A stretch of DNA of 63,911 bases, counting the filler, from Bacteroidales bacterium (lineage in GTDB: Bacteria > Bacteroidota > Bacteroidia > Bacteroidales > CAIWKO01), in assembly GCA_035389045.1 (NCBI GenBank). It is 4 parts of 4 records of this genome, joined end to end, with 100 filler letters (N's around TTAATTAATTAA, not from the genome) between each part and the next. Parts side by side here need not be neighbours in the genome. Positions count along the whole stretch, not along the records: positions 50,327 to 63,911 come from DAOORA010000093.1; 3 more parts are not named here. The stretch is one strand, 5' to 3'. Each line of letters opens with the position of its first letter. Within the stretch, counting starts at the first letter, position 1. Positions 44,789 to 63,911 of the stretch are shown piece by piece. The position numbers were made by a program, and so were the translations under genes. The notes beneath the pieces were generated by a model that made no database searches, was not told the DNA's origin, and was given only the letters and a program-made list of their open reading frames with translations.

Positions 44789-45008
44789 AACATAAAATGA
44801 TTTAATGATTTAGGTCACAAACCTACTTGAAATTTTTGAATTATACAAATTATTGATTTAAAATAAATACAACAGCCTTATTATAAGGTAATTAGTTATA
44901 AGGCAAGATCAGCCGGTGTGCAATAACCTTAACGCTTCAACGAACACTTTCATGTGAAAATCAATACCTGCAAGAAAAATTTTAGACACTGAAACATGTC
45001 TATTCAAA

Positions 45009-47117: not shown

Positions 47118-47239
47118 GGTAGTGGGTTTATTGAACGAAACTGAAGCGGTCGGATAAGAGTATTTTCATAGACTAACAGGTTGAATAAAAATGCTGGGAA
47201 CTCTGCGATAATGTGAATTCAATCCGTATCGGACATGTA

Positions 47240-48091
47240 TTAATAAAAACTTTTCTTTTTCGAAATCCGGGAATGGATGTCATAAACCAGGGATGCCTGC
47301 GGTGAAAACCCCAGCACCGGATGCCGTGAGGCGGAGATATCCAGTTTAAACCGATAGAATTCAAACCCGGCGCCAAAAGAATAAACAAAGGGATTGGTGG
47401 CTATGCCTATCCTTATGAATACCGGTTTTACAATATGATATTCCAGCCCTGTTTTAAATACCGGTTTGAAATTATTGTCTTTTTCTACTTCTGCAGCCAA
47501 TACCGCTTTATCAGAAAAAGTATAAGAGAGGCCTATTTTGAAAATTACCGGGAGCCGTTCATTATTATATGAAGCCAGTTTGGCCTGTATGGGATTGAAG
47601 ATATGTGCTCCGATGATCAGGTTTTTAATTATTTTGGCTCTTATTCCTGCTTCAAAGGTCACTGCGCCTTTGTTTCCGTAATTTTCTGCAATATGGGTAT
47701 ATATATAATCCAGCTGTATGCCTGCGGATATGTTTTCACCAAATGCCATACCGTAGGCCAGTCCGATTTTTGATTCATTATATAATTTATACCCGAGGCT
47801 TGATACATTTAATCCGAAAACACCGGCTTTGTTAACAGGAATAACAAGAGAAAAACATTTCAACCCTAATTCTTTGGTGATGAAACGGTTTTCGTAAAAT
47901 ATCCCTGCAGCAACCTTATCGTAATAGGCCATGGCAGCCTGATTGTTATGCACGGCCCAGAAATCTGTCAGTGTCACCGAGGCGTTGCCCATAGCTCCGG
48001 AACGGCTTCCTATCGGAACGTTTTCTTTTTGTGCTGCAGCAATGAATGGAATGATAATGAAAAATAGTATGATAATTGTTTTTTTTGTCAT
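47240..48091 (-). CDS. Putative outer-membrane beta-barrel protein (PorV/PorP-like superfamily)
   Basis: Signal peptide, GSRSGAMG..S..L, NQA motif, amphipathic strands and HPVLG near the C-terminus. Confidence 0.6.
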   Translation of the reverse strand: MTKKTIIILFFIIIPFIAAAQKENVPIGSRSGAMGNASVTLTDFWAVHNNQAAMAYYDKVAAGIFYENRFITKELGLKCFSLVIPVNKAGVFGLNVSSLGYKLYNESKIGLAYGMAFGENISAGIQLDYIYTHIAENYGNKGAVTFEAGIRAKIIKNLIIGAHIFNPIQAKLASYNNERLPVIFKIGLSYTFSDKAVLAAEVEKDNNFKPVFKTGLEYHIVKPVFIRIGIATNPFVYSFGAGFEFYRFKLDISASRHPVLGFSPQASLVYDIHSRISKKKSFY

Positions 48092-50326: not shown

Positions 50327-50563
50327 CGCGCGCCAAATATCGGCTAACCTGTCCCGAAAAAGCCGAATTGTTTCGCAGAAATCCGCCAGCTGGCGGATGC
50401 GCTGGCAAGAAAATATGCGGTGTGCTGAGCTTGCCGAAGCACGGTGTCAGGGAGTGGCCTGTGCGGAGCCTGCCTGGTGGCAGACAGGGTTCGATATATA
50501 TTTTCTTGTCCGCCAGCTGGCGGATTGGTACTTTTTGTTTCAAGACAAAAAGTACAATAAAAG
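50327..50563. mobile_element. Partial second copy (inverted) of the MITE-like element at 11-457, with three extra mini-insertions
   Basis: Reverse complement aligns with ~1-196; truncated by the contig start. Confidence 0.8.
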
Positions 50564-50987
50564 AAACAACATATAATTGAATATTCTGACTTTTATTTCG
50601 TGTTATATAGATACATTATCTATAATAGATCCAAATTTCATTTGCACTTTTAACCCAAATACCTACACTAAAATCAGAAGCATAAATCAAAATTTGTCCT
50701 GGCCTGATTTTGATTAAACAACGGTAACAGCTTGAAATTAATTCAATTCAAAACATCCTAATACTTCTTCCGCTATTAAAAGTTCAAGAATGTGTTTCTC
50801 GATACTTGTGCTTGTTGTACTTATTTTTGCCATGTGCCAAAGCTCGTATTTTTTTTCCAGCGCATCAAATTATAATTTTGCCGTAATTTCTGATGGGGCA
50901 TACTGTCCTCTGCCAATCTGAATATGCAATAAATTATTTATCTTTGCTGAAAATAAAGCTTTTTACTACTTATCTGATAATCTTATT

Positions 50988-51647
50988 ATGGAAATGGAAT
51001 ACAATACGCAGCGCCCGTTGCTGAATATCTCTGAATACGGGAGAAATGTACACAAAATGATTGAATATACCATGTCGCTGGAAGACCGTGAAGAACGAAA
51101 CAAAGCGGCAGCTACCATTGTTTCGGTCATGTGCACCCTCAATAACCCTCAGAAACTGGACACAGCAGAATTTAAACAAAAAATGTGGGATCACCTGTTT
51201 ATGATGTCGGATTATAAACTCGATGTTGATTCTCCTTTTCCCAAGCCCAACCCTGATAGTAAGGAATATGATAAGTTCCAGTGTTCCTATCCCAACAAAT
51301 ACATACGATACAGGCAGTATGGAAAGAATATTGAAAATATGATCTCAGAGGCCATAAATTATCAGGAAGGCGATGAGAAAGAAAACCTGATCCGTTTTAT
51401 CGCCAATCACCTGAAAAAACTCTATATCAGCTGGAACCGCGATTCTGTGACGGATGAAGTCATTCTTGAACATTTATCCATACTTTCCGATGGCAAACTT
51501 AAACTCGGTGAACATATGAAACTTGAAAACACCCGCGACCTGATTGCAGCCAATACACGAAAAAAAACTCCTTCAGGAGGCGGCCAGGGGGAAAATAAAA
51601 GTAATAAGTACCGCGACAAAAACTGGAAAAAGAAAAAACAACAATAA
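50988..51647 (+). CDS. DUF4290 family protein
   Basis: MEYNTQR..L...EYGR.V, KMWDHL, DVDSPFP and YRQYGK; precedes murA as is usual in Bacteroidota; TATCTTTG box at 50939-50946. Confidence 0.88.
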   Translation: MEMEYNTQRPLLNISEYGRNVHKMIEYTMSLEDREERNKAAATIVSVMCTLNNPQKLDTAEFKQKMWDHLFMMSDYKLDVDSPFPKPNPDSKEYDKFQCSYPNKYIRYRQYGKNIENMISEAINYQEGDEKENLIRFIANHLKKLYISWNRDSVTDEVILEHLSILSDGKLKLGEHMKLENTRDLIAANTRKKTPSGGGQGENKSNKYRDKNWKKKKQQ

Positions 51648-51705
51648 GCAAACTGTTGTTAAGGAAATAGTATCTTTTGATGTCTGATGTTTTAACGAAA
51701 ATCAT

Positions 51706-53010
51706 ATGAATACATTTGAGATCATCGGAGGAAAAACGCTGTGCGGGGAAATAGTTCCGCAAGGAGCAAAAAATGAAGCGCTACAGGTGATCAGCGCTGT
51801 GATGCTGACCCCTGAAAAAGTTACCATCAGCAATATTCCGGATATTGTAGATGTAAATAAACTTATCAATCTGCTGGCTGATCTGGGTGTCGAAGTGAAT
51901 AAAATTGATGGCAGTACCTATTCATTCCAAGCAGATAATATTAATCTTGATTATATATCATCGGAAAAGTTTATGAAGCAATCGGCCGCGCTGAGAGGCT
52001 CGGTAATGCTTATTGGTCCTTTGCTTACCCGCTTTGGCAGTGCTTATATGCCTAAGCCGGGCGGTGATAAGATCGGACGCAGGAGGGTGGATACCCATAT
52101 CATCGGGTTTCAGAACCTGGGAGCTAAGTTTGAATATAGCTATAAAAACAACATATTTAAAATTTATGCCGACCGCCTGAAGGGTTGTTATATGCTGCTT
52201 GATGAGGCCTCCGTAACCGGAACGGCCAACATCATTATGGCTGCCGTGCTGGCCGAAGGGACCACCACCATTTTTAATGCGGCCTGCGAGCCGTATATTG
52301 TTCAGTTATGCACTATGCTGAATACTATGGGCGCCAGGATCAGCGGTGTAAAGTCCAATTACCTTACTATTGAAGGCGTATCTCAGCTTCATGGCTGTGA
52401 GCACCGCCTGCTGCCTGATATGATTGAAATCGGGAGTTTTATCGGCCTTGCCGCTATGACACGGTCGGAGATCACCATTAAAAATGCCGGTTACGATCAT
52501 CTGGGCATGATCCCTGATGTATTTAAGCGCCTGGGAATAAAACTTGAGCGCCGGAATGATGATATCTACATCCCTGCGATGGATACTTACCAGATAGAAA
52601 GTTATCTGGATGGCTCCATACTTACCATTTCCGATGCTCCCTGGCCAGGGTTCACGCCCGACCTGATCAGTGTAGCGCTGGTCGTTGCCACCCAGGCCGC
52701 AGGCAGCGTGCTGATACACCAGAAGATGTTTGAGAGCCGTTTGTTTTTTGTGGATAAACTGATCGACATGGGCGCCAAGATCATACTATGCGACCCGCAC
52801 CGGGCTACCGTAATCGGCCTGAACCGCGAGCATCCGCTGCGCGGCATATCCATGTCCTCTCCCGATATCCGGGCCGGGGTGGCGCTGCTTATTGCGGCAC
52901 TCTCTGCCGAAGGGAAAAGCACCATTTACAACATCGAACAGATCGACCGCGGCTATGAACATATTGATGAAAGACTTCGTAAACTGGGCGCTGAAATTAC
53001 CAGAAAATAA
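51706..53010 (+). CDS. murA: UDP-N-acetylglucosamine 1-carboxyvinyltransferase
   Basis: GAKN, LRGS, PGGDKIGRR, SVTGT, PWPGFTPD, DIRAG and IDRGYE. Confidence 0.96.
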   Translation: MNTFEIIGGKTLCGEIVPQGAKNEALQVISAVMLTPEKVTISNIPDIVDVNKLINLLADLGVEVNKIDGSTYSFQADNINLDYISSEKFMKQSAALRGSVMLIGPLLTRFGSAYMPKPGGDKIGRRRVDTHIIGFQNLGAKFEYSYKNNIFKIYADRLKGCYMLLDEASVTGTANIIMAAVLAEGTTTIFNAACEPYIVQLCTMLNTMGARISGVKSNYLTIEGVSQLHGCEHRLLPDMIEIGSFIGLAAMTRSEITIKNAGYDHLGMIPDVFKRLGIKLERRNDDIYIPAMDTYQIESYLDGSILTISDAPWPGFTPDLISVALVVATQAAGSVLIHQKMFESRLFFVDKLIDMGAKIILCDPHRATVIGLNREHPLRGISMSSPDIRAGVALLIAALSAEGKSTIYNIEQIDRGYEHIDERLRKLGAEITRK

Positions 53011-53017
53011 GGTTTTT

Positions 53018-53602
53018 TTATTTCTTTACTTCACTGATACTCTGAATTACGTTGAAAATTTGCCATGTGGCTGCAGGTTCATACCAGTGTCTTTCTGTCC
53101 GGTAGGTAATGTTGAAATATTTTCCGATGACGGCGGGGTCAATGGTTTCAAAATAGGTTTCCTGGTTCACTATCCTTTTGAAATCACAAGGCGGGCATAA
53201 AGCAAAAAATATTTTATCGCCATTGTCAGGTTTCATAGAATATCCGCCTCCGTCTTCACCAAAAAAAGCCTCCAGCATTTTTGCTTTGGCCGACTTAAGT
53301 TCACCGTTCAACGGTAGCGCCATGGAGGTAAAAGCGCCATAAACCCATCCATTCTTGTTTTTGATAGCTATCTGATACCAGTAATCATTGAATTCCCCGA
53401 TCTTTTCTTTGCTGCCTTTGGAAATAATAGTTCCTGTTTCAAAAGAATTCACCTTGAACAGCACCTCGCCTTTAGAACTTGCCTGAGAGCGGATCCTGAC
53501 ATCATTTCCCATGATGGACAAGGTGTTTTCTGACTGGGAAAATAACGGTTTGACAGATAGCAAAACCGCCAGTATCATGAAAAAACAAAATTTCTGATTC
53601 AT
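53018..53602 (-). CDS. Exported SH3b-domain protein
   Basis: Signal peptide, DVRIRSQAS and WYQI...GWVYGAF. Confidence 0.75.
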   Translation of the reverse strand: MNQKFCFFMILAVLLSVKPLFSQSENTLSIMGNDVRIRSQASSKGEVLFKVNSFETGTIISKGSKEKIGEFNDYWYQIAIKNKNGWVYGAFTSMALPLNGELKSAKAKMLEAFFGEDGGGYSMKPDNGDKIFFALCPPCDFKRIVNQETYFETIDPAVIGKYFNITYRTERHWYEPAATWQIFNVIQSISEVKK

Positions 53603-53686
53603 ATGGTTTTTTTGTAAATCGCTTGATTGATTCATACAAATATAAACTTTTCTAAGGATCAAAAGTGAATATTTCTGTTAAATAAA

Positions 53687-53718
53687 TTTGTTTTATGAAA
53701 AAAAAAACTATATCTTTG
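53687..53718 (+). promoter_or_regulatory. Bacteroidota sigma-A promoter (-33 TTTG, -7 TATCTTTG)
   Basis: TTTG at 53687-53690, 20-bp spacer, TATCTTTG at 53711-53718; upstream of the 53951 gene. Confidence 0.6.
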
Positions 53719-53950
53719 GAAGCATCAAAATATTGCCATTTATTTAATATCATTTCATTACTAACTGCACTTTATGTCAAATTAAAAGAAGAATCTAATT
53801 GAATGTTAAAGTTATGATAATTAATCTATTCGAAGGCAGAAAACGGATTACTGCTACGACAAAACTTTAGTAAAAATAACATTAATACGGTAACACATGT
53901 TGCCAACAATGCAAACAAAAAGAAAATTAACGATTTAATATTGAATTTAT

Positions 53951-55627
53951 ATGAGAATATGGACAACACTAATTCTTAGTATTAGCCTTGTAACTGCTAT
54001 CGCACAAAACGTTTTTTGGGCAAAGAATGCAATCGGCTCCGATCTTGACGAGGGCAACAGCATTGCGGTGGATTCAAGCGGTAACACATACATCACCGGG
54101 CAGTTTGAAAGCACCACGCTGAATTTCGGCCTTGCATCGTGTACTAATTCCACTTCACCCAGCTATACCGATGTTTTTATTGCTAAGTTCGATGTGAATG
54201 GAAACTGTTTGTGGGCAAAAAGCGCCGGTGGTAGTGAAAGCGATTACGGGGCGGCTATTGCGGTTGATAACAGCGGCAACGTGTTTGTGACCGGCCGGTT
54301 TTCGAGCCCGACCATGAACTTTGACGGAACGACCATTACCAATTCCAATATGACAGATATTTTTATAGCCAAATATAATAGCAGCGGAGTCATTCAATGG
54401 GCAAAAGCCATTGGTGGCTACTATGACGAGGAGGGCGTCAGCATTTCATGTGATGACAGTAACAATGTATATCTTTCAGGCTACTTTGACAGCAGTTCGC
54501 TTAATTTCGGCGCACAGTCAGTCACAAATAATGGCAGCGAGGATCTTTTTCTTGCTAAATTCAATGCTACAGGTATCAATCAGTGGGCTGTCGGAATCGG
54601 TGGTAATGACACTGATAAAGCCACTGCAGTAAAGACAGATAATAATGGCAACTCATTTATTACCGGATATTATGGCAGTCCTTCTGTTTCTTTTGGTACA
54701 ACTACCCTTACAAACAGTGGAATTGACGGATGTCTTTTCGTAGCAAAGTACGACAACAGTGGAAACGCTTTATGGGCGACTTCAGGAAGTGCTGTAGGCG
54801 GAGATATAAAGGCAAACGGCATTTCCATAGATGGTAACGGCAATAGTTTCGTGGCTGGAACATTCGATGGGTCTGCGGCTACGATCGGAACATCAACAAT
54901 GACCAATAACCACCCGACTTATGATAATACCTTTACTGCTAAATTTGATAATAACGGCGCTCCGCAATGGGCTGTAAATGCTATCTCAGGGACTGAAGGC
55001 AATGAAGCATACTGCATAGCTGCTGATAATGAAGGCAACTCATTTATCTCGGGATGGTTCACACCACCAACCGTGACTTTTGGAAGTATTGTACTTAATG
55101 GAGGAAGCTTTGGTGACAATATTTTTCTTGTAAAATATAATAATGCAGGTCAGGTGCAGAGTGCACATCGTTTTGCAGGCACAGGCATGTCTGGAGGATA
55201 CGGAAACAGCATAGCATGCGATAACAGCGGCAACGCTTTTCTTACAGGATATTTTGAAGGAACAAGCATGGTTTTTGGCTCTACAACGCTCACTAATACC
55301 ACCTTTAGCACTTACGATGTTTACTGGACAAAAATAGCTCCCGGTTGTACAGGTATAGATAATACTATTCGACCATTTACAGAAATATTTCCTAATCCAT
55401 GCTCCGGACAATTGTTCATTAAAAATCCGTTTACTGCAGGCAGTAAAATTACTCTCATCATCTATAGCATGCAGTCACTGATAGTCAAAACGCTGAATTT
55501 GTCAAGAGAATTTTCAGGTCAGGAGCAGATTTTGGTGGATTTAAGCGGGCTTACTGCTGGAGTTTATTTTCTTAAAATTGAAACAGAAAAGGAGATGATA
55601 ATGGAAAAGTTAATTATTGAAAAGTAA
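53951..55627 (+). CDS. SBBP-repeat beta-propeller protein with T9SS type A CTD
   Basis: Repeats IAVDSSGNTYITG.F...D.FIAK.D..G...WAK; CTD IFPNP...GVYFL...KLII. Confidence 0.9.
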   Translation: MRIWTTLILSISLVTAIAQNVFWAKNAIGSDLDEGNSIAVDSSGNTYITGQFESTTLNFGLASCTNSTSPSYTDVFIAKFDVNGNCLWAKSAGGSESDYGAAIAVDNSGNVFVTGRFSSPTMNFDGTTITNSNMTDIFIAKYNSSGVIQWAKAIGGYYDEEGVSISCDDSNNVYLSGYFDSSSLNFGAQSVTNNGSEDLFLAKFNATGINQWAVGIGGNDTDKATAVKTDNNGNSFITGYYGSPSVSFGTTTLTNSGIDGCLFVAKYDNSGNALWATSGSAVGGDIKANGISIDGNGNSFVAGTFDGSAATIGTSTMTNNHPTYDNTFTAKFDNNGAPQWAVNAISGTEGNEAYCIAADNEGNSFISGWFTPPTVTFGSIVLNGGSFGDNIFLVKYNNAGQVQSAHRFAGTGMSGGYGNSIACDNSGNAFLTGYFEGTSMVFGSTTLTNTTFSTYDVYWTKIAPGCTGIDNTIRPFTEIFPNPCSGQLFIKNPFTAGSKITLIIYSMQSLIVKTLNLSREFSGQEQILVDLSGLTAGVYFLKIETEKEMIMEKLIIEK

Positions 55628-55700
55628 TAAGTGAATATCATAAATTATTAGTAGCAATAATTTGAATTAATGACAAATTATTATATGACAATTGCACTGT

Positions 55701-55830
55701 TGGTAACAAAGGCTTGCTACCAGAGGGGCAGCGGGGTTTTAGGACAGTGCAGTTCTTTTAATTATCTTTGTTGTATTCGGACAGGAAAGGGCTTCGATTA
55801 GCCCCGCCGTTAGCAAGCCTCGACCGATAG
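55701..55830 (+). other. Degenerate attC-like (gene-cassette-type) palindromic element
   Basis: TGGTAAC left core, perfect AGGCTTGCTA/TAGCAAGCCT arms, inner GGGGC/GCCCC; the right core reads GATAG instead of GTTAG. Confidence 0.5.
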
Positions 55831-55950
55831 AAATATTCCATTTTGGTGGATCAGGTTGCAGCGGAAGCGGTGGGCTGCTTTGTACGGAATATCCAGACTA
55901 TGGCCTAAGCAGGTCTATCACAACATGCTTTCTCTGAAATAATAAACAAA

Positions 55951-56478
55951 ATGAGATACAACCCTCAATTTCTAAATGAATACGGAATAATTGCCTATGA
56001 TGAATGGCTGAAAACCCCCGAATTGCGTAAAAATGTGGAATTGGATGTTTTTATTGTTATGCCCAACCATATACACGGCATTATCGTTATCACCGATACT
56101 GTCAAGGGCGTATTGCATACGCCCGGTGATAACGACGTGCCGCTTATGCACGATGATGGTACGGATGTATCGCTAATGCATGATGCTGCTGCGGATGTAT
56201 CGCTAATGCACGATAAAACAAATGTGCCCGATAATATCAGGGACTTATGCAATACGTCCCTGCGGTCGCCATCGCAAACGGTTGGGGCAATTGTTCGTGG
56301 GTATAAATCATCTGTTACGAATAAAATAAATAAATCAAAACATTGTACAGGTTTCATGGTGTGGCATCGTAATTATCACGACCATATTATCCGAAACAAA
56401 CAATCATATAAAAATATTTTCGAATATATCATTAACAATCCGGCAAAAAGGAATGATGATGTATTTTATTTTGAATGA
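55951..56478 (+). pseudogene. RAYT/Y1 transposase with apparent N-terminal internal deletion and in-frame REP insertions
   Basis: MPNHIHGI (HuH), GAIVRGYKSSVT, WHRNYHDHIIR and YIINNP; MRYNPQ runs directly into LNEYG. Confidence 0.75.
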
Positions 56479-56574
56479 AATATTGGGCAACTTTTTCCAT
56501 TGGTGTATCTTAACAGTTTCGTTTTTTTCTTTATTTTTGTATCATATTATTTAGACTGAATAAAAATTCATATC

Positions 56575-58017
56575 ATGGAAAATAATGATGTACTGGATGA
56601 CCTGACACATAGTGAATACAAATATGGTTTTTATACGGATGTGGAGATGGATGTGGCTCCCAAGGGGCTGAATGAAGATATTATCCGGTTTATTTCGAAA
56701 AAGAAAAATGAGCCCGTATTTATGCTTGAGTTCAGACTGAAAGCCTATAATAAATGGCTAACGATGAAACAGCCGAACTGGGCACATCTGAAAATTCCCC
56801 CTATTGATTATCAGGATATCATTTATTATGCGGCTCCGAAAAACACTAAAAAGCCAGGCAGCCTTGACGAGGTGGACCCTGAATTATTAAAGACATTTGA
56901 TAAATTAGGCATACCGCTCAATGAGCAGAAGATCCTTTCCGGTGTGGCTGTGGATGCTGTCATTGACAGTGTCTCTGTGAAAACCACTTTTCAGAAGACG
57001 CTCGAAGAGAAAGGCATTATATTTTGTTCGATCACCGAAGCTATACAAAATCATCCGGAACTGGTAAAAAAACACCTCGGTTCTGTGGTGCCATACGGGG
57101 ATAATTATTTTGCAGCGCTCAATTCGGCGGTATTTACCGATGGATCCTTCTGTTACATTCCAAAGGGCATACGCTGCCCTATTGAGCTCTCCACGTATTT
57201 TCGTATTAATGCCGCCAAGACCGGGCAGTTTGAACGCACCCTGCTCATTGCTGATGAAGGCGCTTACGTCAGTTATATGGAAGGTTGCACAGCGCCGCAA
57301 CGCGATGAAAACCAGTTACATGCAGCGGTTGTGGAAATCATTGCCATGGAAGATGCCGAGGTAAAATACTCCACCGTACAAAACTGGTATCCCGGTGACA
57401 AAAACGGCGCCGGAGGGATTTTTAATTTTGTTACCAAGAGAGGGATATGTAAAGGCAACAATTCGAAAATCTCCTGGACACAGGTCGAAACAGGGTCTGC
57501 CATCACCTGGAAATATCCAAGTTGTATACTGAAAGGCGACAACTCCGTCGGTGAGTTTTATTCTGTTGCCGTCACCAACAATTATCAGCAGGCCGATACC
57601 GGTAGTAAAATGATACATCTGGGCAGGAACAGTAAAAGCACCATCATCTCAAAAGGTATATCGGCGGGAAAAAGCGATAACAGTTACCGGGGCCTGGTGC
57701 GGGTAAACAAAGGCGCAGTAAATGCCAGAAATTTCTCTCAGTGCGATTCGCTGCTGATGGGCAACCAATGCGGGGCACATACGTATCCGTACATCAAAGT
57801 CGAAAATAAATCAGCAATTATTGAACACGAAGCCACCACTTCAAAGATCTCGGATGAGCAGCTGTTTTATTGCAAACAACGCGGCATAGATCAGGAAAGC
57901 GCCATCAACCTTATTGTAAACGGCTACGCCAAGGAAGTGCTCAATAAACTACCCATGGAATTTGCTGTGGAAGCGCAGAAACTGCTTTCTATAAGCCTTG
58001 AAGGCAGCGTTGGATAA
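56575..58017 (+). CDS. sufB: Fe-S cluster assembly protein SufB
   Basis: [40 protein letters not shown] and EHEATTSKI. Confidence 0.97.
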
Positions 58018-58027
58018 TTTTTTGTTG

Positions 58028-58420
58028 TTAAAAATAATTATTGAAGTTATTGAAAATACTGATAAGGTGTATCACTGCATAAATACATCCTGTAACAATA
58101 AGTATTATCCGCCACACCTTGTTTTTTACAATGAAAGCCAGCAATAAAGGTATTGCTGCATACATCAGGTTAGAAAATATTTCTAAATATCTGAAGGTGC
58201 TGAAGTAATCATATCTTGATTTATAGGCCAACCAATAAAACCTGAATCCAAACCAGAATAATCCGTTTATGGCCATGAATATGGAAATGATTATAATTAC
58301 CGTATCAGCATACAGGTTTTTTCCTTGAATCTCAGGCACATCCTTTTCCAGCTTATAACCGCATTTGATGCAAAATTCAGCATGACTGACGTTTTCGGAC
58401 TGACAATTTTTACAGATCAT
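58028..58420 (-). CDS. Zinc-ribbon-domain membrane protein
   Basis: CKNC..N....FC.KCG followed by three TM segments. Confidence 0.75.
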   Translation of the reverse strand: MICKNCQSENVSHAEFCIKCGYKLEKDVPEIQGKNLYADTVIIIISIFMAINGLFWFGFRFYWLAYKSRYDYFSTFRYLEIFSNLMYAAIPLLLAFIVKNKVWRIILIVTGCIYAVIHLISIFNNFNNYF

Positions 58421-58480
58421 ATATCAGATATTAATGATGAATTGGTAAAGCTACTATGAAAACAGGAATCAGTCAGGATA

Positions 58481-59377
58481 TCATAGCGTTTTTTTTCTTT
58501 GAAACGGGATTTTATTTATGATCAATCCGGCAAGAGTTACAAATATCCCCGCAATTTTCACAGCAGTGAAGTATTCTTTATAGATAATATAGGATAGTAT
58601 GGCCGTAAAAATGGGTATCAGGTAAGTAAAGACGGTGGCTTTGGAAACGCCTATACTTTTTGTTCCGGCATTAAACAGTATATATGCCAGAGAAGATGCA
58701 AAAATGGCAAGGGCAAGAAGGTTAAAGATCAAATCTGCGTTGAAATCAAAGCCTATCAGGTCGTTGTAATCAAATATGAGCACCAGCGGGAGGAAATAAA
58801 AGATCCCGGTGAAATTGGCTACGGTCGTAATGGTATAGGGGGTATATTTTTTCAACATATTTTGCAGAAGATAACCGTACACCAGCACACTGCTTACTGC
58901 CAGGCCCATATACATTAATCCGAGCGGCGATGCGGCTAAGGTCAGATCTTTGTTAAGAACGACCATCAGCACGCCGGCAAATGAAATAAAAATACCGAGA
59001 TAATTGTTTGATCTCAATGGTTCTTTGGCCAGAAAATACATCGAAAACGGCACAAACAAAGGTATCGTTGAAATTACAATGGCTGCTACCGTTGGCGAAA
59101 CGAGGCTGATGCCATAACTTTCGCCCAGAAAATACAAAAAGGGCTGGAAAAATGCCAGCAGCAGAAATTTGGGAATATCCTGTTTTTGTATCTTTTCCAG
59201 TTTTTTATAAAAGAGTGAAAACACGACAAGAAAAACTGTCGAAATGATCAGCCTCAGAAAAATGGTCGTGAGCGGATTAAGGTACTTATAAACCTCCTTG
59301 ATCCAGATGTATGAAAAACTCCAGAACACCATGGAGATCATCAAAGCACCATATGTAAGAGCAGTATTCTTCTTCAT
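58481..59377 (-). CDS. DMT/EamA family transporter
   Basis: FWSFSY...K, FLRL and ten TM helices in two repeats. Confidence 0.9.
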   Translation of the reverse strand: MKKNTALTYGALMISMVFWSFSYIWIKEVYKYLNPLTTIFLRLIISTVFLVVFSLFYKKLEKIQKQDIPKFLLLAFFQPFLYFLGESYGISLVSPTVAAIVISTIPLFVPFSMYFLAKEPLRSNNYLGIFISFAGVLMVVLNKDLTLAASPLGLMYMGLAVSSVLVYGYLLQNMLKKYTPYTITTVANFTGIFYFLPLVLIFDYNDLIGFDFNADLIFNLLALAIFASSLAYILFNAGTKSIGVSKATVFTYLIPIFTAILSYIIYKEYFTAVKIAGIFVTLAGLIINKIPFQRKKTL

Positions 59378-59478
59378 AAATAGTCGTGCAAAAGTATGGT
59401 TTTTATCCAAACGGCTATTTTCTTGTGTATAGGAAAAATCAATAAAAGAAATTGTTTTATTTTTACAGAAAAAATTGT

Positions 59479-60591
59479 ATGCCGCAGCCAGCCCGTAAGC
59501 AAAAACTTCCGCCTTTGTTTGTAATAAAAGCCACCATTGCCTTTCGTAATTTTCTTTTGAAAATGACAGGGAAAATGTTGCCTGCCAGTTATGTGATGCT
59601 CGAAGAAGTCTCTAAATTATGGAAAGTTAAAGCGTTGGAAATTGCTGCGAATCTTGATATTGCCGGTCTTTTAAAGGACGGCCCTCAGAACGTTGAAAAA
59701 CTGGCCGGACTTACTTCATCCGATACTTCGGCTTTATACCGGGTACTGCGGGCTTTAGCTGGTGAAGGCATTTTCAGGGAATTGCCGGGAAGAGTTTTTA
59801 AAAATACACGTTTGTCTTTGGCCATTTCCGATCAAAAAGAATCAGTACGATACTTTGCAATGCATCATATTGGCAAAACCAACTGGGAACTAACAGGCGA
59901 TATGCCTTATTGCGTGGCAGGCGGAAAAGATGCTTTCAGCCGTAAATTTAACTCCAGCCCTTTTGAGTACCTTAAAAACCACCCCGGAGAAAACGATGTT
60001 TTCAATAAAGCCATGACTGAAACCGCTGCATTGTCCGGGGATATTCTGGTCAGCTCGTATCCGTTCGGAAAATTCAAAACCATAGTGGATGTAGGAGGCG
60101 GACAAGGTTTGTTTCTGGCTCAGATTCTGACGGAGCATCCCGGTTCGGAAGGAATCCTTGTCGATCAGCCCCATGTGGCCGCCACTGCGATGCAAAATTT
60201 CATTAGTCAAAACGTGGATGGTCGCTGTAAAATCATCGAAGGAAGCTTTTTTGAAACCATTCACGGCAGCGGCGACCTGTATATCATGAAAAACATTCTT
60301 CACGACTGGGATGATGAAACAGCGGTGCTGATTCTTAAAAATCTGCATAAAAATATGCCGGCTCATGCAAGTTTACTTCTGATCGAAACCATTATTAAAG
60401 CGGATAATAAACCTTCCTTCGGTAAATTTATTGATCTGCAGATGCTCATTGGAACACAGGGCGGGAGGGAAAGGACTTTGGATGAGTACAGCATATTGCT
60501 GAACAAATCGGGTTTCGTGTTAAGCAGGATTATTGAAAATGCAACTCCGTTCAGTTTTATCGAAGCATCAAAATCATTGAATCTTCATTAA
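59479..60591 (+). CDS. SAM-dependent O-methyltransferase (COMT-like family 2, with dimerisation domain)
   Basis: LYRVLRAL...GIF, FNKAM, VDVGGGQG, ILHDWDD and GRERT. Confidence 0.9.
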   Translation: MPQPARKQKLPPLFVIKATIAFRNFLLKMTGKMLPASYVMLEEVSKLWKVKALEIAANLDIAGLLKDGPQNVEKLAGLTSSDTSALYRVLRALAGEGIFRELPGRVFKNTRLSLAISDQKESVRYFAMHHIGKTNWELTGDMPYCVAGGKDAFSRKFNSSPFEYLKNHPGENDVFNKAMTETAALSGDILVSSYPFGKFKTIVDVGGGQGLFLAQILTEHPGSEGILVDQPHVAATAMQNFISQNVDGRCKIIEGSFFETIHGSGDLYIMKNILHDWDDETAVLILKNLHKNMPAHASLLLIETIIKADNKPSFGKFIDLQMLIGTQGGRERTLDEYSILLNKSGFVLSRIIENATPFSFIEASKSLNLH

Positions 60592-60771
60592 AAATTATTT
60601 TCTGATTATGACTGACAATGTTTTGTGACTTAATAATTTGTTCTAAATTTGTATTGTTGTAACCGGATAATAATTCATATCTTTATTTTTTTATAGAAAA
60701 TAAATTTCAGTACTTAGCAGTTTTCAATGTTGTTAATAAGATATCAATATAAAACATAAAATTAAATTCTT

Positions 60772-61230
60772 ATGAAATTAAAATTTTTGAAATGTTTGTT
60801 TTCGCTTATTGCTGCTTTATTGGGTTTTACTGGTAGTGTTGCAGCCCAATATGGGGTAGTGGAAAATCATTATATGGTAAACGGGAGTGTAATGTCCGAT
60901 AAATGTAAGGAGGCGCTGCCCCAGATCAAAATAACACTCAGGGCTATTGATTCCAAAGGCGTAAAACACGATATGGAAGCCCGTACCGATGAAAGCGGAA
61001 ATTTCAGTATTAATGATGTGGAACTCAAACGCTTTCAATACTATGAGCTGATCGCAGAAGATACTGACGGTAAGCTGAATAAGGGTGACTTTGAAACGAC
61101 ACGTCAGCAGATAGAGTTGACCTCAGATGATTTTATCAAGGGTTCTTATCAGAACTGGAACCAGAATTATGATAGTAAAACCCAATATTATTTTGGCCTG
61201 AAGTTTAAGCAAGACCAACCCTGTAGGTAG
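60772..61230 (+). CDS. Exported radical-SAM-associated protein (TIGR04134-like) without a lipobox; QYG motif
   Basis: Signal peptide ending SVAA, then QYGV; G.V, I.I, TD..GN and ED.DG..N.G.F shared with the two downstream paralogs. Confidence 0.7.
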   Translation: MKLKFLKCLFSLIAALLGFTGSVAAQYGVVENHYMVNGSVMSDKCKEALPQIKITLRAIDSKGVKHDMEARTDESGNFSINDVELKRFQYYELIAEDTDGKLNKGDFETTRQQIELTSDDFIKGSYQNWNQNYDSKTQYYFGLKFKQDQPCR

Positions 61231-61247
61231 CGCCTGTAAGGGAACCC

Positions 61248-61448
61248 AGTGTCTGAACCGAATAGTTCAGTTTCGAGGCCTGTCCGACTGTGCCATTCAG
61301 GCAGGCCTGTCTGACTGGCTCAGCCAGGCAGGCTTGCGAAGCGACAAAAAGCGGAGTTTGCTGGGGTAAATGCGTCGTGCTGAGTTTATCGAAGCAAGCA
61401 TTTTTGGAGCAAGTCTAATGAAGAAAATGGAGTTTTCGTTCAGACACT
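61248..61448. mobile_element. 201-bp MITE with 11-bp terminal inverted repeats and nested mini-palindromes
   Basis: AGTGTCTGAAC (61248-61258) / GTTCAGACACT (61438-61448). Confidence 0.72.
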
Positions 61449-61572
61449 TAGTAAATTTTCAGGTACGATTTTTGATACTAATAATCTTTTTAATTTACAA
61501 TGTTATTCGGTGATATTTATGTTCTTAAACTAATGAATTAGTTCAAAAACAGTTTCTTAATACTCTGGCGAT

Positions 61573-62025
61573 ATGAATAAAAAAAGATCATATATATTGA
61601 AAATCCGTTCATTTCTCCTGAAAAAGTTTCTTTGGTTAACCGGTATCATTGGTCTGGTTTTTTGGGGTTCCTGTTCCAAGTTCGATGGCGGCAATCCCCA
61701 GGCTATGTATGGTGTGCTTTTCCCTGAAATAAAATTCAGGGGCTCAGTGACCGATCAGGAAAACCAAAACCCAGTCCACGGCATCAGTGTGAAACTGACA
61801 GAAGGGAACAGCGACACTGCCTCGGCAGTTACAGATTCATTAGGCAATTATTTTATTTTTGCAAACGGCAGTTATGAAAATCAGACCTTTAAACTGATCT
61901 TTACAGATGTTGACAGTACTAACAACGGGGAATATCTGACAAAAACCATTGATGTTTCACTAAGTTTCCGGGACATGAACAACAAGGAACACATTGCCAA
62001 TGTAGAGCTGGAACCTAAAGAATAA
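61573..62025 (+). CDS. Radical-SAM-associated putative lipoprotein (TIGR04134-like); MYG motif
   Basis: Lipobox-like WGSC, QAMYGV, G.VTD...P..GI.V, TDSLGNY and FTDVD...NG.Y. Confidence 0.78.
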   Translation: MNKKRSYILKIRSFLLKKFLWLTGIIGLVFWGSCSKFDGGNPQAMYGVLFPEIKFRGSVTDQENQNPVHGISVKLTEGNSDTASAVTDSLGNYFIFANGSYENQTFKLIFTDVDSTNNGEYLTKTIDVSLSFRDMNNKEHIANVELEPKE

Positions 62026-62036
62026 ATTAATTGAAT

Positions 62037-62474
62037 ATGTCAGATAAAATAATAAAATTACGGGTTTTTTGCCTGAAAAACTTATTGCGGCTGTTGGGCA
62101 TGGCAGGGTTCAGCATGTTGGTATCCTGCACCAAATATGGCGCGCCCATTGCCGAATATGGAATAATTTCCAGCGACTATCTTGATTTTCATGGCAGGGT
62201 TGTATCGGGCGATTCGTTGCAACCCATACAAAATATCAAGGTGAAACTGAGTTTTCAACCCGACGACACCCTTACCACCCGGACGGATATAGATGGTAAC
62301 TACAGCATACACCATTATGCCGGCCAGGGGCAGACAGGGACATTGGTTTTCACGGACACAGACAGTATTCAGAACGGCAGCTTTTATCAGAAAAATGTTA
62401 TGGCAGAGGTTGATTTCAGAGATATGAACAACCTGGAGCACGAGGCCAATGTGGAATTAGAACGCAAACCTTAA
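62037..62474 (+). CDS. Radical-SAM-associated putative lipoprotein (TIGR04134-like); two YG motifs
   Basis: Lipobox LVSC, TKYGAPIAEYGI; C-terminus FRDMNN.EH.ANVELE.K shared with the previous gene. Confidence 0.78.
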   Translation: MSDKIIKLRVFCLKNLLRLLGMAGFSMLVSCTKYGAPIAEYGIISSDYLDFHGRVVSGDSLQPIQNIKVKLSFQPDDTLTTRTDIDGNYSIHHYAGQGQTGTLVFTDTDSIQNGSFYQKNVMAEVDFRDMNNLEHEANVELERKP

Positions 62475-62674
62475 CGGGGAAGGCCCTGAAAATATGTTAT
62501 ATGGCTGGGCTGCATTTATTAGTTCGTCATTCTCTTACGGGTATTTTCATTCATTTGGAAAAATGAAATATACTTTGTTAATAACTTTTATGATGCCCAT
62601 TTTGCCATTCAATTGGATTTTTTTCAAACGCACCATAGTTTTACCGGTATAGTCCAACAAAAAATTGTAATAAT

Positions 62675-63763
62675 TTGAAAAATCATTATCCCGGACTGAG
62701 AAAACGAATTGCACTGAATGTATTCAGCAAATATGTCGAAGTGCAGTCTCAGCTGCATGAGCTGAGCTATTTTTTCTGGGAATGTACACTGCGCTGCAAT
62801 ATTTCCTGTATCCATTGCGGCAGCGACTGCCGCAGCGACACGGGTATACAGGATATGCCTTACCGGGATTTCCTTAAAGTGACATCCCGTGTTAAAGAGG
62901 TTTATGATCCGCAAAAAGTGATGATCGTGATAACCGGTGGCGAACCGTTGATGCGCAAGGATCTTGAAGAATGTGGTATGGAACTGTACAGGCAGGGTTT
63001 TCCCTGGGGGTTTGTTACCAATGGATATGCCCTGACCGCTGACCGCTTTGAACGGCTTTTAAACAGTGGATTGCGTTCAATGACGGTCAGCCTCGACGGC
63101 TTTGAAGCCAATCATAACTGGCTGCGTGGTAACGTACATAGTTTTGAAAAGGCAGTAAATGCTATTGACCTGGCTGTAAAAGCAGGAGATCATATTGTAT
63201 ATGATGTGGTTACCTGTGTCAACAAAAGAAACTTTGAGGAGTTATCTGCACTCAAAAAATTCTTGACAGGGATGGGTGTGAAGCGCTGGAGGCTTTTCAG
63301 TATTTGCCCTATCGGACGGGCTAAAGAAAATCCCCTGCTTACCCTCAGCAATGCACAGTTTCGCACGTTACTTGATTTCATTAAGGAAAACCGTAGGGAA
63401 GGAGCCATAAAAACCAGCTTTGGGTGCGAAGGTTTTTTAGGTGATTATGAAGCCGAGGTGCGCGATGGATTTTTCTTCTGCCGTGCTGGTGTAAATATTG
63501 CCTCTGTCCTGGCCGACGGCACCATCTGTGCCTGTCCCAACATCGACCGGTATACCTTTGCACAGGGAAATATTTACAAAGACGACTTCATTGATGTGTG
63601 GAATAACAGGTTTCAGCAAATGCGCGACCGCAGCTGGACTAAAGAAGGGCAATGTGCAGGTTGTAAAGAATACAAATGGTGCAGGGGTAATGGTATTCAC
63701 CTGCGTGATGTAAAAAATCATGATGTGCTGCGGTGTCATTTGAAAATGATACAACAGGATTGA
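62675..63763 (+). CDS. Radical SAM/SPASM enzyme, rSAM/lipoprotein system (TIGR04133-like)
   Basis: WECTLRCNISCIHCGS (CxxxCxxC), TGGEP, VTNG, SLDG; SPASM Cys set CRAG...ICACP...CAGC.....C...RC; TTG start. Confidence 0.87.
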   Translation: MKNHYPGLRKRIALNVFSKYVEVQSQLHELSYFFWECTLRCNISCIHCGSDCRSDTGIQDMPYRDFLKVTSRVKEVYDPQKVMIVITGGEPLMRKDLEECGMELYRQGFPWGFVTNGYALTADRFERLLNSGLRSMTVSLDGFEANHNWLRGNVHSFEKAVNAIDLAVKAGDHIVYDVVTCVNKRNFEELSALKKFLTGMGVKRWRLFSICPIGRAKENPLLTLSNAQFRTLLDFIKENRREGAIKTSFGCEGFLGDYEAEVRDGFFFCRAGVNIASVLADGTICACPNIDRYTFAQGNIYKDDFIDVWNNRFQQMRDRSWTKEGQCAGCKEYKWCRGNGIHLRDVKNHDVLRCHLKMIQQD

Positions 63764-63911
63764 TTTCCCGTATTTTAAGCTCATCCATAATTGTATGGTG
63801 AAAACGTTGTGTCAAAACCAAAATGACGGGAGGGTTTATTTCTTTTAACTTTTGCTTTAGTACCTTATTTTTAATATTGATGTATTTTTTGGCATAATAT
63901 TCAATAGCAAT

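Follow-up and report, generated by a model that had tools for sequence, protein, structure and literature searches.

Tyramine spliceases belong to the splicease family IPR026482 (PMC11002830). Two kinds have been described: the type I enzymes PlpX and PcpX, which act together with a Y protein, and the binary type II enzymes RhaX, RcsX and RasX, which need no Y/RRE protein and in which the leader helix is bound by the enzyme. The published splice sites of PlpXY are MYG and LYG. To our knowledge, backbone splicing to β-amino ketoamides has so far been confined to small RiPPs that are secreted, mostly by cyanobacteria along with a few gammaproteobacteria, and the known spliceotides are RiPPs with Nif11/NHLP leaders, none of them Sec substrates. 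IPR026482 was taken here to be equivalent to TIGR04103, and the XYG precursors at 20 of 20 cyanobacterial TIGR04103 loci agree with this assumption.

The closest described pair is TIGR04133 ("radical SAM/SPASM protein") and TIGR04134 ("radical SAM-associated putative lipoprotein"), both hypothetical equivalog families without an assigned reaction; the JGI name for the enzyme family is "rSAM/lipoprotein system". The locus described here is a member of this pair. Among the 120 enzyme homologues listed, no source name gave a function except one, cyclic pyranopterin monophosphate synthase, which seems to be an annotation error. The invariant Tyr-Gly, the non-TIGR04134 scaffolds and a splicease link were not found in the literature searched, outside which lies the Scott 2022 survey; a prior description of the YG site or of a splicease link for TIGR04133 is possible.

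Gene layout and family membership

The window is the whole 63,911-nt stretch of DNA that was analysed. In it, three TIGR04134 genes, encoding the proposed substrates 1 to 3, were found directly upstream of a TIGR04133 gene on the same strand (Table 1), and this substrate-then-enzyme order is the usual one in the family. All four ORFs were where the initial annotation had placed them, and its family assignment was confirmed, since all four proteins were above the curated cut-offs of the NCBIfam profiles. Each small protein exceeded the TIGR04134 cut-off of 39.8 bits, and the enzyme exceeded the TIGR04133 cut-off of 425 bits over profile positions 1-349 of 350. On its own genome, the TIGR04133 profile gave 17 matches, of which one, the locus enzyme, was above the cut-off.

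Table 1. Features of the locus, numbered along the window.
Feature	Position	Strand	Description
Proposed substrate 1	60772-61230	+	152 aa; signal-peptidase-I-type signal, beta-sandwich domain; TIGR04134 63.4 bits
Substrate 1 Tyr27-Gly28 codons, site Q-Y-G	60850-60855	+	Read from sequence; invariant in both alignments
Dispersed intergenic repeat, between substrate genes 1 and 2	61240-61448	.	blastn against own genome
Proposed substrate 2	61573-62025	+	150 aa; lipobox WGS-C34, tether with A-M-Y46-G47-V, beta-sandwich from residue 53; TIGR04134 58.7 bits
Substrate 2 Tyr46-Gly47 codons, site M-Y-G	61708-61713	+	Y46, G47 invariant in 46/46 rows
Proposed substrate 3	62031-62474	+	147 aa; lipobox LVS-C33, two tandem YG sites, beta-sandwich; TIGR04134 44.4 bits
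Substrate 3 YG sites	62136-62162	+	Y36G37 62136-62141, Y43G44 62157-62162; read from sequence
200-nt spacer, substrate 3 to enzyme gene	62475-62674	.	No blastn match
Radical SAM/SPASM enzyme	62675-63763	+	362 aa; TIGR04133 534.9 bits; Pfam Radical_SAM and SPASM
CX3CX2C motif (C41 NIS C45 IH C48), radical SAM [4Fe-4S] cluster	62795-62818	+	Invariant Cys in orthologue alignment

The enzyme begins with WECTLRCNISCIHCGS, as quoted initially, and contains the Pfam domains Radical_SAM (PF04055, 73.8 bits) and SPASM (PF13186, 35.7 bits). A CX3CX2C motif combined with a C-terminal Cys-rich SPASM domain places it in the radical SAM/SPASM superfamily. Cys residues 41, 45, 48, 52, 251, 269, 287, 327, 330, 336 and 354 are invariant in 31 orthologues, and their SPASM pattern is C269-x12-G-x4-C287, C327-x2-C330-x5-C336 and C354. 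No signal peptide was found in the enzyme. Since the enzyme core begins at about residue 33, it has no fused RRE. As first noted, no separate RRE/PqqD gene is present in the window, and none is conserved in 19 wider loci, where one to four co-oriented substrate genes are the sole conserved neighbors.

The gap of about 343 nt between substrate genes 1 and 2 contains a repeat; a blastn search of the genome with 61231-61572 located further copies, partial or almost complete, on over 15 other contigs. In relatives, these two genes are just 42-90 nt apart. The repeat is an insertion and no part of the enzyme/substrate system. The closest relatives carry a gene for a small coiled-coil YG lipoprotein (L064 1945-2322, L044_6, L045_8 and L046_9) at the position of the spacer before the enzyme gene; the spacer had no match by blastn, and this lipoprotein gene is absent from this genome. 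At most loci of relatives, going by the coordinates, the end of the substrate gene and the start of the enzyme gene overlap by 1-4 nt. In RNA libraries, a 1540-nt contig spans 61502-63041 and a 977-nt contig spans 61834-62810, a weak signal that is possibly DNA carry-over, and an RNA contig over several genes is no proof of a single transcript.

The Tyr-Gly site and its association with the enzyme

The strings quoted earlier from the substrates were found again, namely AAQYGV in substrate 1, C34-SKFDGGNPQAMYGV in substrate 2 and C33-TKYGAPIAEYGI in substrate 3, and the locus has the four YG sites reported at first, with X being Q, M, K and E. Two of them stand in tandem in substrate 3 (K-Y36-G37-A-P and E-Y43-G44-I), and tandem xYGxP sites are common among relatives. 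Substrates 3 and 2 are 42% identical. In the three-way alignment Y27, G28, T72, D73, G76, N77, D97, D99 and G105 are invariant, and the shared TD..GN and D.D...NG motifs, also noted initially, are therefore real.

Conservation of YG among substrate homologues was a preset check, and the dipeptide was invariant in 46 of 46 aligned relatives. The sole invariant columns of this alignment are Y46, G47 and G91, with a nearly invariant lipobox Cys (44 of 46), and Tyr-Gly is the most conserved feature of the substrate family. In all 45 short homologue hits YG was located at residues 13-51. The spacing from Cys to Tyr in relatives is 5 to 14 residues, and some YG sites are 4-8 residues before the C-terminus. 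Across TIGR04133 loci X is mostly E, M, L or K (E in 73 of 207 sites), and the +2 position is P in 119 of 207.

Judged by eye and regex, a lipobox Cys is present in substrates 2 and 3 and not in substrate 1, whose signal reads ..LLGFTGSVAA-QYGV, with AAQYGV after a signal-peptidase-I-like VAA; its close homologues P0018 and L044_9 have VAAQYGV too. The signal peptides are long, with the lipobox Cys at a median position of 29 versus 21.5 in a crude set of lipoproteins from the same genome, and G24 of the LLGF motif is at least 90% conserved in the 46 relatives. The AF2 model of substrate 2 (mean pLDDT 90.7) consists of a helix (3-35), a low-confidence linker (36-52) and strands (53-146), and its Foldseek matches were transthyretin, CarboxypepD_reg and CnaB-like folds. 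In this model the YG site is in the linker (pLDDT about 63), between the lipobox Cys and the beta-sandwich, and is predicted to be accessible in a flexible tether.

Complex prediction of the enzyme with substrate residues 1-80 gave a score of 0.50, while the best of three controls gave 0.00, which weakly supports the pairing; at least 70% of the contacts agreed between runs, and the partner pLDDT was at least 52. Of 157 solved complexes, 116 passed the mark for such scores, as did 2 of 215 mismatched pairs; scores above the mark and up to 0.60 came from just 18 of the 157 solved complexes yet included both passing mismatches. These counts hold only roughly here because the prediction used alignments made for this analysis.

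At 75 of 80 loci picked solely by the enzyme, an exported co-oriented YG protein adjoins it; in four of the other five, the enzyme is less than 430 nt from the start of the available sequence stretch. The first upstream ORF contained YG.P at 64 of 77 enzyme loci (83%), compared to 15 of 1032 own-genome ORFs of 100-250 aa (1.5%). The proteins next to the enzyme are of several kinds. Coiled-coil lipoproteins have a C-terminal TKYGIP, helical lipoproteins have two to three VYG[SP]PE sites, and Ser-rich lipoproteins of Fibrobacter have three to seven P-x-YG-V sites. There are also mini-lipoproteins of 62-75 aa, and a 75-aa lipoprotein from Neomarinimicrobiota has three sites. No Pfam family was matched by the coiled-coil, helical, Ser-rich or mini scaffolds. 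Across loci with replaced scaffolds the enzyme is 48-59% identical. The YG motif follows the enzyme and not the fold, into unrelated scaffolds and other phyla. Of 401 genomes sampled from the order, 94 encode a member of the enzyme family, which comprises 6449 protein clusters at E <= 1e-30; it occurs in anaerobes of the Bacteroidales, Marinilabiliales and Fibrobacter, prominent genera of the gut and rumen included.

Comparison of the enzyme with spliceases

The present system and the spliceases share a radical SAM enzyme with a SPASM domain and adjoining co-oriented substrates with a conserved and often repeated X-Tyr-Gly. In both, Pro often stands at -2 and Val at +1. Cyanobacterial TIGR04103 loci had co-oriented precursors with P-[LM]-Y-G-V sites in 20 of 20 cases, with L as X in 33 of 54 and V or I at +2, whereas X is mostly Glu and +2 mostly Pro at TIGR04133 loci. 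The present enzyme is shorter (362 versus about 420 aa) and has the extra invariant residues C52 and C251, which are A and N in the TIGR04103 clade. Its substrates have Sec/lipoprotein signal peptides and are mostly folded beta-sandwiches, while spliceotides have Nif11/NHLP leaders, and no leader protease or exporter gene accompanies it in the 19 wider loci. The hosts also differ, being cyanobacteria or gammaproteobacteria for the spliceases and anaerobic Bacteroidales, Marinilabiliales and Fibrobacter here.

The enzyme scored 111.1 bits against TIGR04103, below the cut-off of 725, and is therefore not filed under this PlpX-type family. Its scores against TIGR04053 (123.9) and heme b synthase AhbD (117.6) were slightly higher, and anSME was not among its 25 best NCBIfam hits. 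In the reverse direction, the TIGR04133 profile gave 145-176 bits with the TIGR04103 clade and at most 128 bits with the other sampled SPASM enzymes. Among NCBIfam families, TIGR04133 ranked 3rd for five, 4th for one and 5th for two of eight TIGR04103-clade proteins, and was 10th to 16th or unlisted for the 13 other radical SAM proteins scanned. Derived residues common to both clades are L39, G49, W205, A216, G253 and G256, and both have G49-S50 after CX3CX2C (HCGS).

The initial annotation had called the enzyme splicease-like. In the best tree it stood apart from the non-splicease SPASM families, TIGR04133 being sister to the TIGR04103 clade (SH-aLRT 91), and this second preset check, like that on YG, did not refute the idea. 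The grouping was not significant, since an alternative in which TIGR04133 pairs with the NirJ/TIGR04053 group was not rejected by the AU test (delta lnL 2.04, p 0.449). The tree had 64 rows, with TIGR04103 members standing in for experimentally characterised spliceases and without MftC, GDL-type (TIGR03913), anSME or sactisynthase rows, and was built by a quick method with long branches. Judged by these sequence comparisons, the TIGR04103 clade is the nearest relative of the enzyme among the clades sampled.

A type I (ternary) splicease was rejected, as no Y/RRE protein was found in the window or the 19 wider loci. The absent RRE gene is no argument against a splicease, because the published binary spliceases have no Y/RRE protein and, like the present system, no separate RRE. 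The enzyme, if a splicease, would be of the binary kind.

Proposed reaction and alternatives

It was initially suggested that the enzyme modifies folded, membrane-anchored proteins. This did not hold: lacking a signal peptide and dependent on Fe-S clusters, SAM and a reductant, the enzyme must work in the cytoplasm, on precursors that are not yet exported or lipidated. Other cytoplasmic radical SAM/SPASM enzymes modify export-bound proteins before they cross the membrane, namely anSME with sulfatases and QhpD with QhpC; they differ in converting Cys/Ser to formylglycine or forming thioether crosslinks, and are not known to be linked to YG.

We infer that the enzyme acts on these proteins, that it does so ahead of export and that the signal peptide serves as leader. 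We propose, at even confidence, a two-gene system whose cytoplasmic enzyme alters x-Tyr-Gly-x-Pro prior to Sec export, tyramine excision being the likeliest reaction. The cassette would be self-contained, the TIGR04133 enzyme recognising new precursors of exported, mostly lipidated proteins, and the unusually long conserved signal peptide would probably serve it as a leader-like helix. Modification of the invariant Tyr-Gly, in the flexible tether that follows closely on the lipobox Cys, would come ahead of export by Sec, cleavage of the signal peptide and attachment of the lipid. The likeliest chemistry would be that of known spliceases, in which a 5'-deoxyadenosyl radical abstracts hydrogen; a tyramine equivalent (C8H9NO, about 135 Da) would be lost and the backbone rejoined as the alpha-keto-beta-amino amide of residue X. 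The exported product would carry an electrophilic, protease-resistant ketoamide near its membrane anchor. The wider proposal, that these enzymes form a large unstudied splicease clade using the Sec/lipoprotein signal peptide as leader and cutting tyramine from the membrane-proximal tether of surface lipoproteins before export, is plausible at slightly less than an even chance.

The enzyme might act on the same substrates and site with an outcome other than a ketoamide, such as D-Tyr epimerisation, desaturation, hydroxylation at the beta position, cleavage between C-alpha and C-beta like that by tyrosine lyases, or a crosslink from Tyr to a residue close by. SPASM enzymes are chemically diverse (anSME, PqqE, MftC and sactisynthases), and this one is outside TIGR04103, with TIGR04053 and AhbD as its best non-self NCBIfam scores and another placement not rejected by the AU test. 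C52 and C251, missing from the TIGR04103 clade, and flanks with E at X and P at +2, unlike those of cyanobacterial splice sites, also point this way. However, a strictly invariant Gly right after Tyr is the defining splice-site determinant, and of the enzyme clades sampled, the one that goes with XYG is the nearest; we consider another chemistry rather unlikely. Against a crosslink in particular, no second conserved residue offers a partner: the Cys-to-Tyr spacing varies, the Cys is missing from substrate 1 and P0018, and some sites are close to the C-terminus.

Tyramine excision was also weighed against readings in which YG is not the target. YGxP could be a structural or sorting feature (a tether or turn, a signal for surface export or glycosylation, or a site for a protease). 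The enzyme's target would then be a lipid, a cofactor or some other residue, with the lipoprotein as an accessory or later partner. In favor of this reading, the physical or chemical link between enzyme and YG is a putative one, the complex prediction supports the pairing weakly, and most substrates have a beta-sandwich of a generic type used for binding or as a stalk. Yet a cytoplasmic Fe-S enzyme cannot meet a lipoprotein after export, and the pair occurs without any further conserved gene in the 19 wider loci. The motif survives replacement of the fold and change of phylum, its frequent tandem duplication is expected of an enzyme recognition site, and the stop-start overlaps indicate coupled synthesis, making such a role improbable. 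A chance association or annotation artefact, with YG proteins functionally unlinked to the enzyme, is effectively refuted. YG alone is common, occurring in 315 of the 1032 background ORFs (100-250 aa), but the pair was found in 75 of 80 independent loci, the neighbors far exceed the background in YG.P, YG is invariant in the 46 relatives, and NCBI defines the families as a pair, as does the JGI name.

Since YG is the site edited by known spliceases, many anaerobes may carry chemically edited surface proteins. If tyramine excision is correct, full-size lipoproteins destined for export would commonly undergo tyramine splicing as a post-translational edit, and Bacteroides, Prevotella, Parabacteroides and Fibrobacter of guts, rumens and digesters would be among many anaerobes displaying an alpha-keto-beta-amino amide next to the lipid anchor. 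As a warhead or covalent handle made ribosomally on a protein scale, the group could capture serine and cysteine proteases from the host or from microbes, shield the tether from proteolysis or bind the protein covalently to another envelope component. An orphan NCBIfam pair would gain a reaction, host-associated anaerobes would be indicated to have reactive surface proteins of a new class, and the compact binary enzymes with short x-Y-G-x-P tags would be useful for protein engineering. Even with another chemistry, the invariant YG would give one precise dipeptide as the target.

A related arrangement was observed next to cyanobacterial TIGR04103-related enzymes (440- and 600-bit groups), which adjoin membrane-anchor-like precursors reading Zn-ribbon ... 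VLGASI..TLSAC-YG-[TVA]-PP, or ..AASC..QPVYGAP twice. As in the present system, YG-x-P comes directly or soon after a Cys resembling that of a lipobox. These systems, apparently uncharacterised, differ in that the enzymes belong to the TIGR04103 clade instead of TIGR04133 and the precursors have Pro/Ser/Thr-rich tails and no beta-sandwich. The same Cys-YG arrangement (..QACYGTPQ) occurs in a Bacteroidales subgroup.

Organization of the locus

The initial annotation had described three co-oriented exported proteins with a Tyr-Gly (YG) site directly upstream of a radical SAM/SPASM gene. This arrangement was confirmed by the ORFs, NCBIfam and Pfam, and the HMM searches proposed there assigned the enzyme to TIGR04133 and all three small proteins (substrates 1 to 3) to TIGR04134. 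In Pfam, the enzyme contained Radical_SAM and SPASM domains, and the only matches of the substrates were CarboxypepD_reg-like and below threshold.

Features of the locus, in positions of the window
Feature	Position	Strand	Description
Substrate 1	60772-61230	+	ORF, 152 aa; TIGR04134 63.4 bits (cut-off 39.8)
Substrate 2	61573-62025	+	ORF, 150 aa; TIGR04134 58.7 bits (cut-off 39.8)
Substrate 3	62031-62474	+	ORF, 147 aa; TIGR04134 44.4 bits (cut-off 39.8)
Radical SAM/SPASM enzyme	62675-63763	+	ORF, 362 aa; TIGR04133 534.9 bits (cut-off 425)
Dispersed repeat	61240-61448		about 210 nt, GC-rich, between substrate genes 1 and 2

The locus lies on a 13.6 kb contig (C93, window positions ~50327 to 63911) that forms the last part of the window. 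Since the enzyme gene ends 148 nt from the contig end, its downstream side is not visible in this genome. The assembly has 135 contigs, and the window joins separate ones end to end (C82, for example, covers 1-16848); adjacency across the joins is meaningless. Genes for an O-methyltransferase, an EamA transporter, a zinc-ribbon membrane protein and SufB were found upstream of the substrates and were rejected as parts of the system, because they do not accompany the pair in relatives. Contexts of 16 kb were read for 19 of 21 loci (L056 and L058 were left out, their enzyme ORF having been lost in ORF picking), and the only conserved neighbors were one to four co-oriented substrate genes. No conserved protease, exporter or RRE gene was observed in these 19 contexts, and the earlier remark that the window holds no separate RRE gene was borne out. 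The substrate stop overlapped the enzyme start by 1-4 nt in most loci; in this genome, substrate 3 and the enzyme are separated by a spacer of 200 nt (62475-62674). In the closest relatives, a gene for a coiled-coil YG lipoprotein, absent from this genome, is located between substrate 3 and the enzyme. One or two such extra small genes were present per relative (L064 1945-2322 and 1345-1743; L044_6; L045_8; L046_9), and their products carry C-terminal TKYGIP or AEYGPP sites.

Within the 343-nt gap between substrate genes 1 and 2 lies a dispersed repeat. More than 15 further contigs of the genome carry partial or near-full copies, several of which sit at contig ends, and the repeat resembles a MITE/REP-like element at which the assembly also breaks. 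An Rfam scan of 60400-63911 returned nothing real; the two matches to miRNA models, both sub-threshold and located on a hairpin (61273-61338) near the 5' side of the repeat, were rejected.

RNA-library contigs from three runs covered parts of the locus. One of 1540 nt (61502-63041) contained genes 2 and 3 with the spacer and reached into the 5' part of the enzyme gene, and another of 977 nt spanned 61834-62810. No such contig covered 63300-63800, and several runs shared only small fractions of the sequence words; neither observation was counted as evidence. Since RNA libraries may contain DNA and one contig is no proof of a single transcript, these data give a weak hint that the substrate and enzyme genes are co-expressed.

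Conservation and distribution of the YG site

A word-indexed search with substrate 2 returned no match beyond itself because the family is too divergent, and a full HMMER scan was therefore used. A profile of the three paralogues matched 2457 of 1.84 billion representatives. Giant multi-repeat proteins among the top matches were rejected as family members; they aligned only to the CarboxypepD_reg-like core (profile positions ~50-97) and are fold relatives sharing just the sandwich core. All 45 short proteins examined, 44 from the scan and one near-identical match, have YG at residues 13-51. In the 46-row alignment the only invariant columns were Y46, G47 and G91, while G24 of the LLGF signal-peptide motif and the lipobox Cys were at least 90% conserved.

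To avoid circularity, 80 public loci were chosen by the enzyme alone and the neighboring genes were taken by position. An adjacent co-oriented exported YG protein was found in 75 of them, upstream in 70 and only downstream in 5. In four of the five misses the enzyme was within 430 nt of the start of the available sequence, leaving one real exception (L128). The pattern YG.P occurred in 64 of 77 first upstream ORFs, compared with 15 of 1032 ORFs of 100-250 aa from the window's own genome. Over 207 sites the residue before Tyr (X) was E 73 times, M 33, L 23, K 20, A 13 and D 9, and Pro stood at the second position after Gly in 119. YG is thus conserved above all else in the family, so that the point on which the initial annotation could have failed, conservation among substrate homologues, held in both the alignment and the enzyme-chosen loci. 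We consider it very probable that YG is the target site of the TIGR04133 enzyme.

The YG motif tracks the enzyme rather than the fold. Neighbors of TIGR04133 enzymes also included coiled-coil lipoproteins of 111-132 aa ending in ..TKYGIP.., helical lipoproteins of 170-218 aa with VYG[SP]PE two to three times, mini-lipoproteins of 62-75 aa that are barely more than PEYGxxPMYGVP, and Ser-rich lipoproteins of Fibrobacter succinogenes with three to seven P-x-YG-V sites. No Pfam family was found in the three non-sandwich scaffolds tested, and the enzymes beside these varied scaffolds were 48-59% identical to the window's enzyme throughout. In one Bacteroidales subgroup (..QACYGTPQ), X is the lipobox Cys itself. 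The F. succinogenes substrates (L112, L120, L123, L136 and L141) share a very conserved N-terminus, M.YKHWKK..L..T.FFWASC, followed by Ser-rich linkers that hold the YG sites. Two to four YG-lipoprotein genes stand in tandem in L120, L123 and L136, and L141 has a second TIGR04133-like ORF (54-1130) upstream of the YG-rich substrate gene.

Of 401 genomes sampled from the window's order, 94 contained the enzyme family, with 85 exceeding the cut-off; in a phylum-wide sample it occurred in 4 of 401 genomes, all four in the same order. The control genome, that of Bacteroides thetaiotaomicron, exceeded the cut-offs of both TIGR04133 and TIGR04134. Named records came from Bacteroidales and Marinilabiliales genera (e.g., Bacteroides, Prevotella, Parabacteroides, Phocaeicola and Paludibacter), from Fibrobacter, and from single MAGs labelled Neomarinimicrobiota, Kapaibacterium, Sabulitectum and Chloroflexota. 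The enzyme matched 6449 protein clusters at E <= 1e-30; among the 120 matches listed, nearly all source names were uncharacterised family labels and one record was named cyclic pyranopterin monophosphate synthase. Cassettes also appeared in bins labelled outside the FCB group, namely L069 ('Bacillales bacterium UBA5732') and L142/L284 (a 'Chloroflexota' MAG). Since the L069 substrate is nearly identical to one from Lentimicrobium (L075), mis-binning is likely, and the spread beyond the FCB group is apparent and should be treated with care.

Relation of the enzyme to spliceases

TIGR04103, which we take to be equivalent to IPR026482, represents the PlpX-type spliceases. PlpX is described as an IPR026482 member (PMC11002830), and spliceases are described as rSAM/SPASM enzymes whose excision of a tyramine equivalent at XYG leaves an alpha-keto-beta-amino amide (PMC10849128, PMC9811515). 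TIGR04103 members were collected from cyanobacterial genomes, where 38 of 401 genomes had a match at E <= 1e-60, with 21 exceeding the cut-off. All 20 loci taken had co-oriented precursors with a Nif11 leader and P-[LM]-Y-G-V sites, in agreement with the published MYG and LYG sites.

On TIGR04103, whose cut-off is 725 bits, the window's enzyme scored 111, and TIGR04053 (124) and AhbD (118) scored higher. It is therefore not a TIGR04103 member. The tree placed the two families as sisters. In this quick IQ-TREE analysis of 64 rows, TIGR04133 was monophyletic (100*) and its sister was the TIGR04103 clade, with an SH-aLRT of 91, unstarred. The family sampling was limited: alternate rows of one alignment (A3) and alternate TIGR04103 loci were used together with 14 divergent TIGR04133 rows, 11 relatives of TIGR04103 and 13 other rSAM proteins, with L290 (duplicate), L291 (truncated) and L005-L007 (weak matches) left out. 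A grouping of TIGR04133 with NirJ/TIGR04053 was not rejected by the AU test (delta lnL 2.04, p 0.449).

Profile comparisons pointed toward the TIGR04103 clade. A profile of 31 TIGR04133 orthologues gave the TIGR04103 clade 145-176 bits and the best other sampled SPASM enzyme (NirJ2) 128. Among NCBIfam models, TIGR04133 ranked third for five, fourth for one and fifth for two of eight TIGR04103-clade proteins, and 10th to 16th or unlisted for the 13 other rSAM proteins scanned (NirJ, TIGR04053, PqqE, PapB-like and own-genome paralogues). The two clades have L39, G49 (forming HCGS with the third cluster Cys), W205, A216, G253 and G256 in common, residues that few or none of the 13 outgroup rows show; C52 and C251 were specific to TIGR04133. 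A PDB sequence search found distant rSAM enzymes only (best cytosylglucuronate decarboxylase, E 4.8e-14) and gave no functional guide. Judged from sequence, the affinity between TIGR04133 and TIGR04103 is consistent across methods and not statistically secured.

Cyanobacterial enzymes that reach 440 bits on TIGR04103 stand beside precursors in which a zinc ribbon is combined with a hydrophobic segment ending in ..LSAC and directly followed by YG-[TVA]-PP, the same arrangement as ..QACYGTPQ in the Bacteroidales subgroup. Directly upstream of such enzymes (L299-L303), the ORFs are 95-116 aa long, with an N-terminal zinc ribbon and a Pro/Ser/Thr-rich tail, and a 600-bit relative has a precursor with ..AASC..QPVYGAP twice. 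The L299-L303 precursors resemble membrane-anchored XYG substrates belonging to the splicease-related clade, and a membrane anchor signal followed by YG-x-P is therefore not unique to TIGR04133. Outside the window, the same genome (G000) has six radical SAM/SPASM-like genes within ~18 kb of contig C27 (~28900-47300; matches at 28925, 31693, 42269, 43687, 45457 and 46862), which may form a RiPP or cofactor maturation island.

Proposed maturation of the substrates

An AlphaFold2 model of substrate 2, built with 46 relatives, had a mean pLDDT of 90.7. It consists of a long helix (3-35) corresponding to the signal peptide, a linker (36-52, pLDDT ~63) holding Y46-G47, and a beta-sandwich (53-146). 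In Foldseek the sandwich resembled transthyretin, carboxypeptidase-regulatory and CnaB-type domains, all of them generic folds for stalks or binding. The lipobox Cys is C34 in substrate 2 and C33 in substrate 3, while substrate 1 has a signal-peptidase-I-type site (VAA|QYG) and no lipobox Cys. The median lipobox position was 29 in the family versus 21.5 in crudely collected lipoproteins of the same genome.

The enzyme has no signal peptide and needs Fe-S clusters, SAM and a reductant, which means that its action on the precursor must take place in the cytoplasm, before export. The anSME enzymes likewise act on sulfatases in the cytoplasm before export. PlpX requires a Y protein, whereas many later 'binary' systems have none, their leader alpha-helix filling the same site (PMC11414181). 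By analogy, the long signal peptides, the conserved LLGF motif and the single long modelled helix suggest that the signal peptide doubles as such a leader helix. When the enzyme was co-folded with residues 1-80 of the substrate, the score was 0.50 (best of three controls 0.00), with at least 70% of contacts shared between runs and a partner pLDDT of at least 52. Of 157 solved complexes, 116 attained the mark, as did 2 of 215 mismatches; at 0.60 or below, only 18 of the 157 and both passing mismatches attained it. These counts hold only roughly since custom alignments were used, and the model is weakly supportive of the enzyme-substrate pairing.

In the proposed pathway, the enzyme would modify the Tyr-Gly of the precursor ahead of export, and cleavage by signal peptidase II (I for substrate 1) and lipidation would follow. 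Tyramine excision would be the most economical chemistry, given an invariant Tyr-Gly and no conserved partner residue. A thioether or other crosslink between the lipobox Cys and the Tyr was rejected because the distance between the two is variable (5-14 residues), substrate 1 has no such Cys, and some sites are C-terminal. With excision, the ketoamide would end 5-14 residues from the anchor and might, speculatively, serve in protease trapping, tether protection or covalent attachment. We give a spliced ketoamide product about even chances. The initial interpretation is partly supported, by the conserved YG and by an affinity toward the TIGR04103 clade that is not statistically secured; the enzyme fails the PlpX family model and its tree placement was non-significant.

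Scott et al. 2022 reportedly screened rSAM-SPASM neighbors for YG richness, and their survey may therefore already cover the TIGR04133 family. That survey of spliceases in 'peptides and proteins' is cited as covering 189 genera and 27 validated pairs (PMC10849128). One paper gives the name TIGR04134 to the type B T9SS C-terminal domain, which is unrelated to the lipoprotein family described here. In the literature searched, no paper linked the TIGR04133/TIGR04134 family, or lipoproteins, to splicing.
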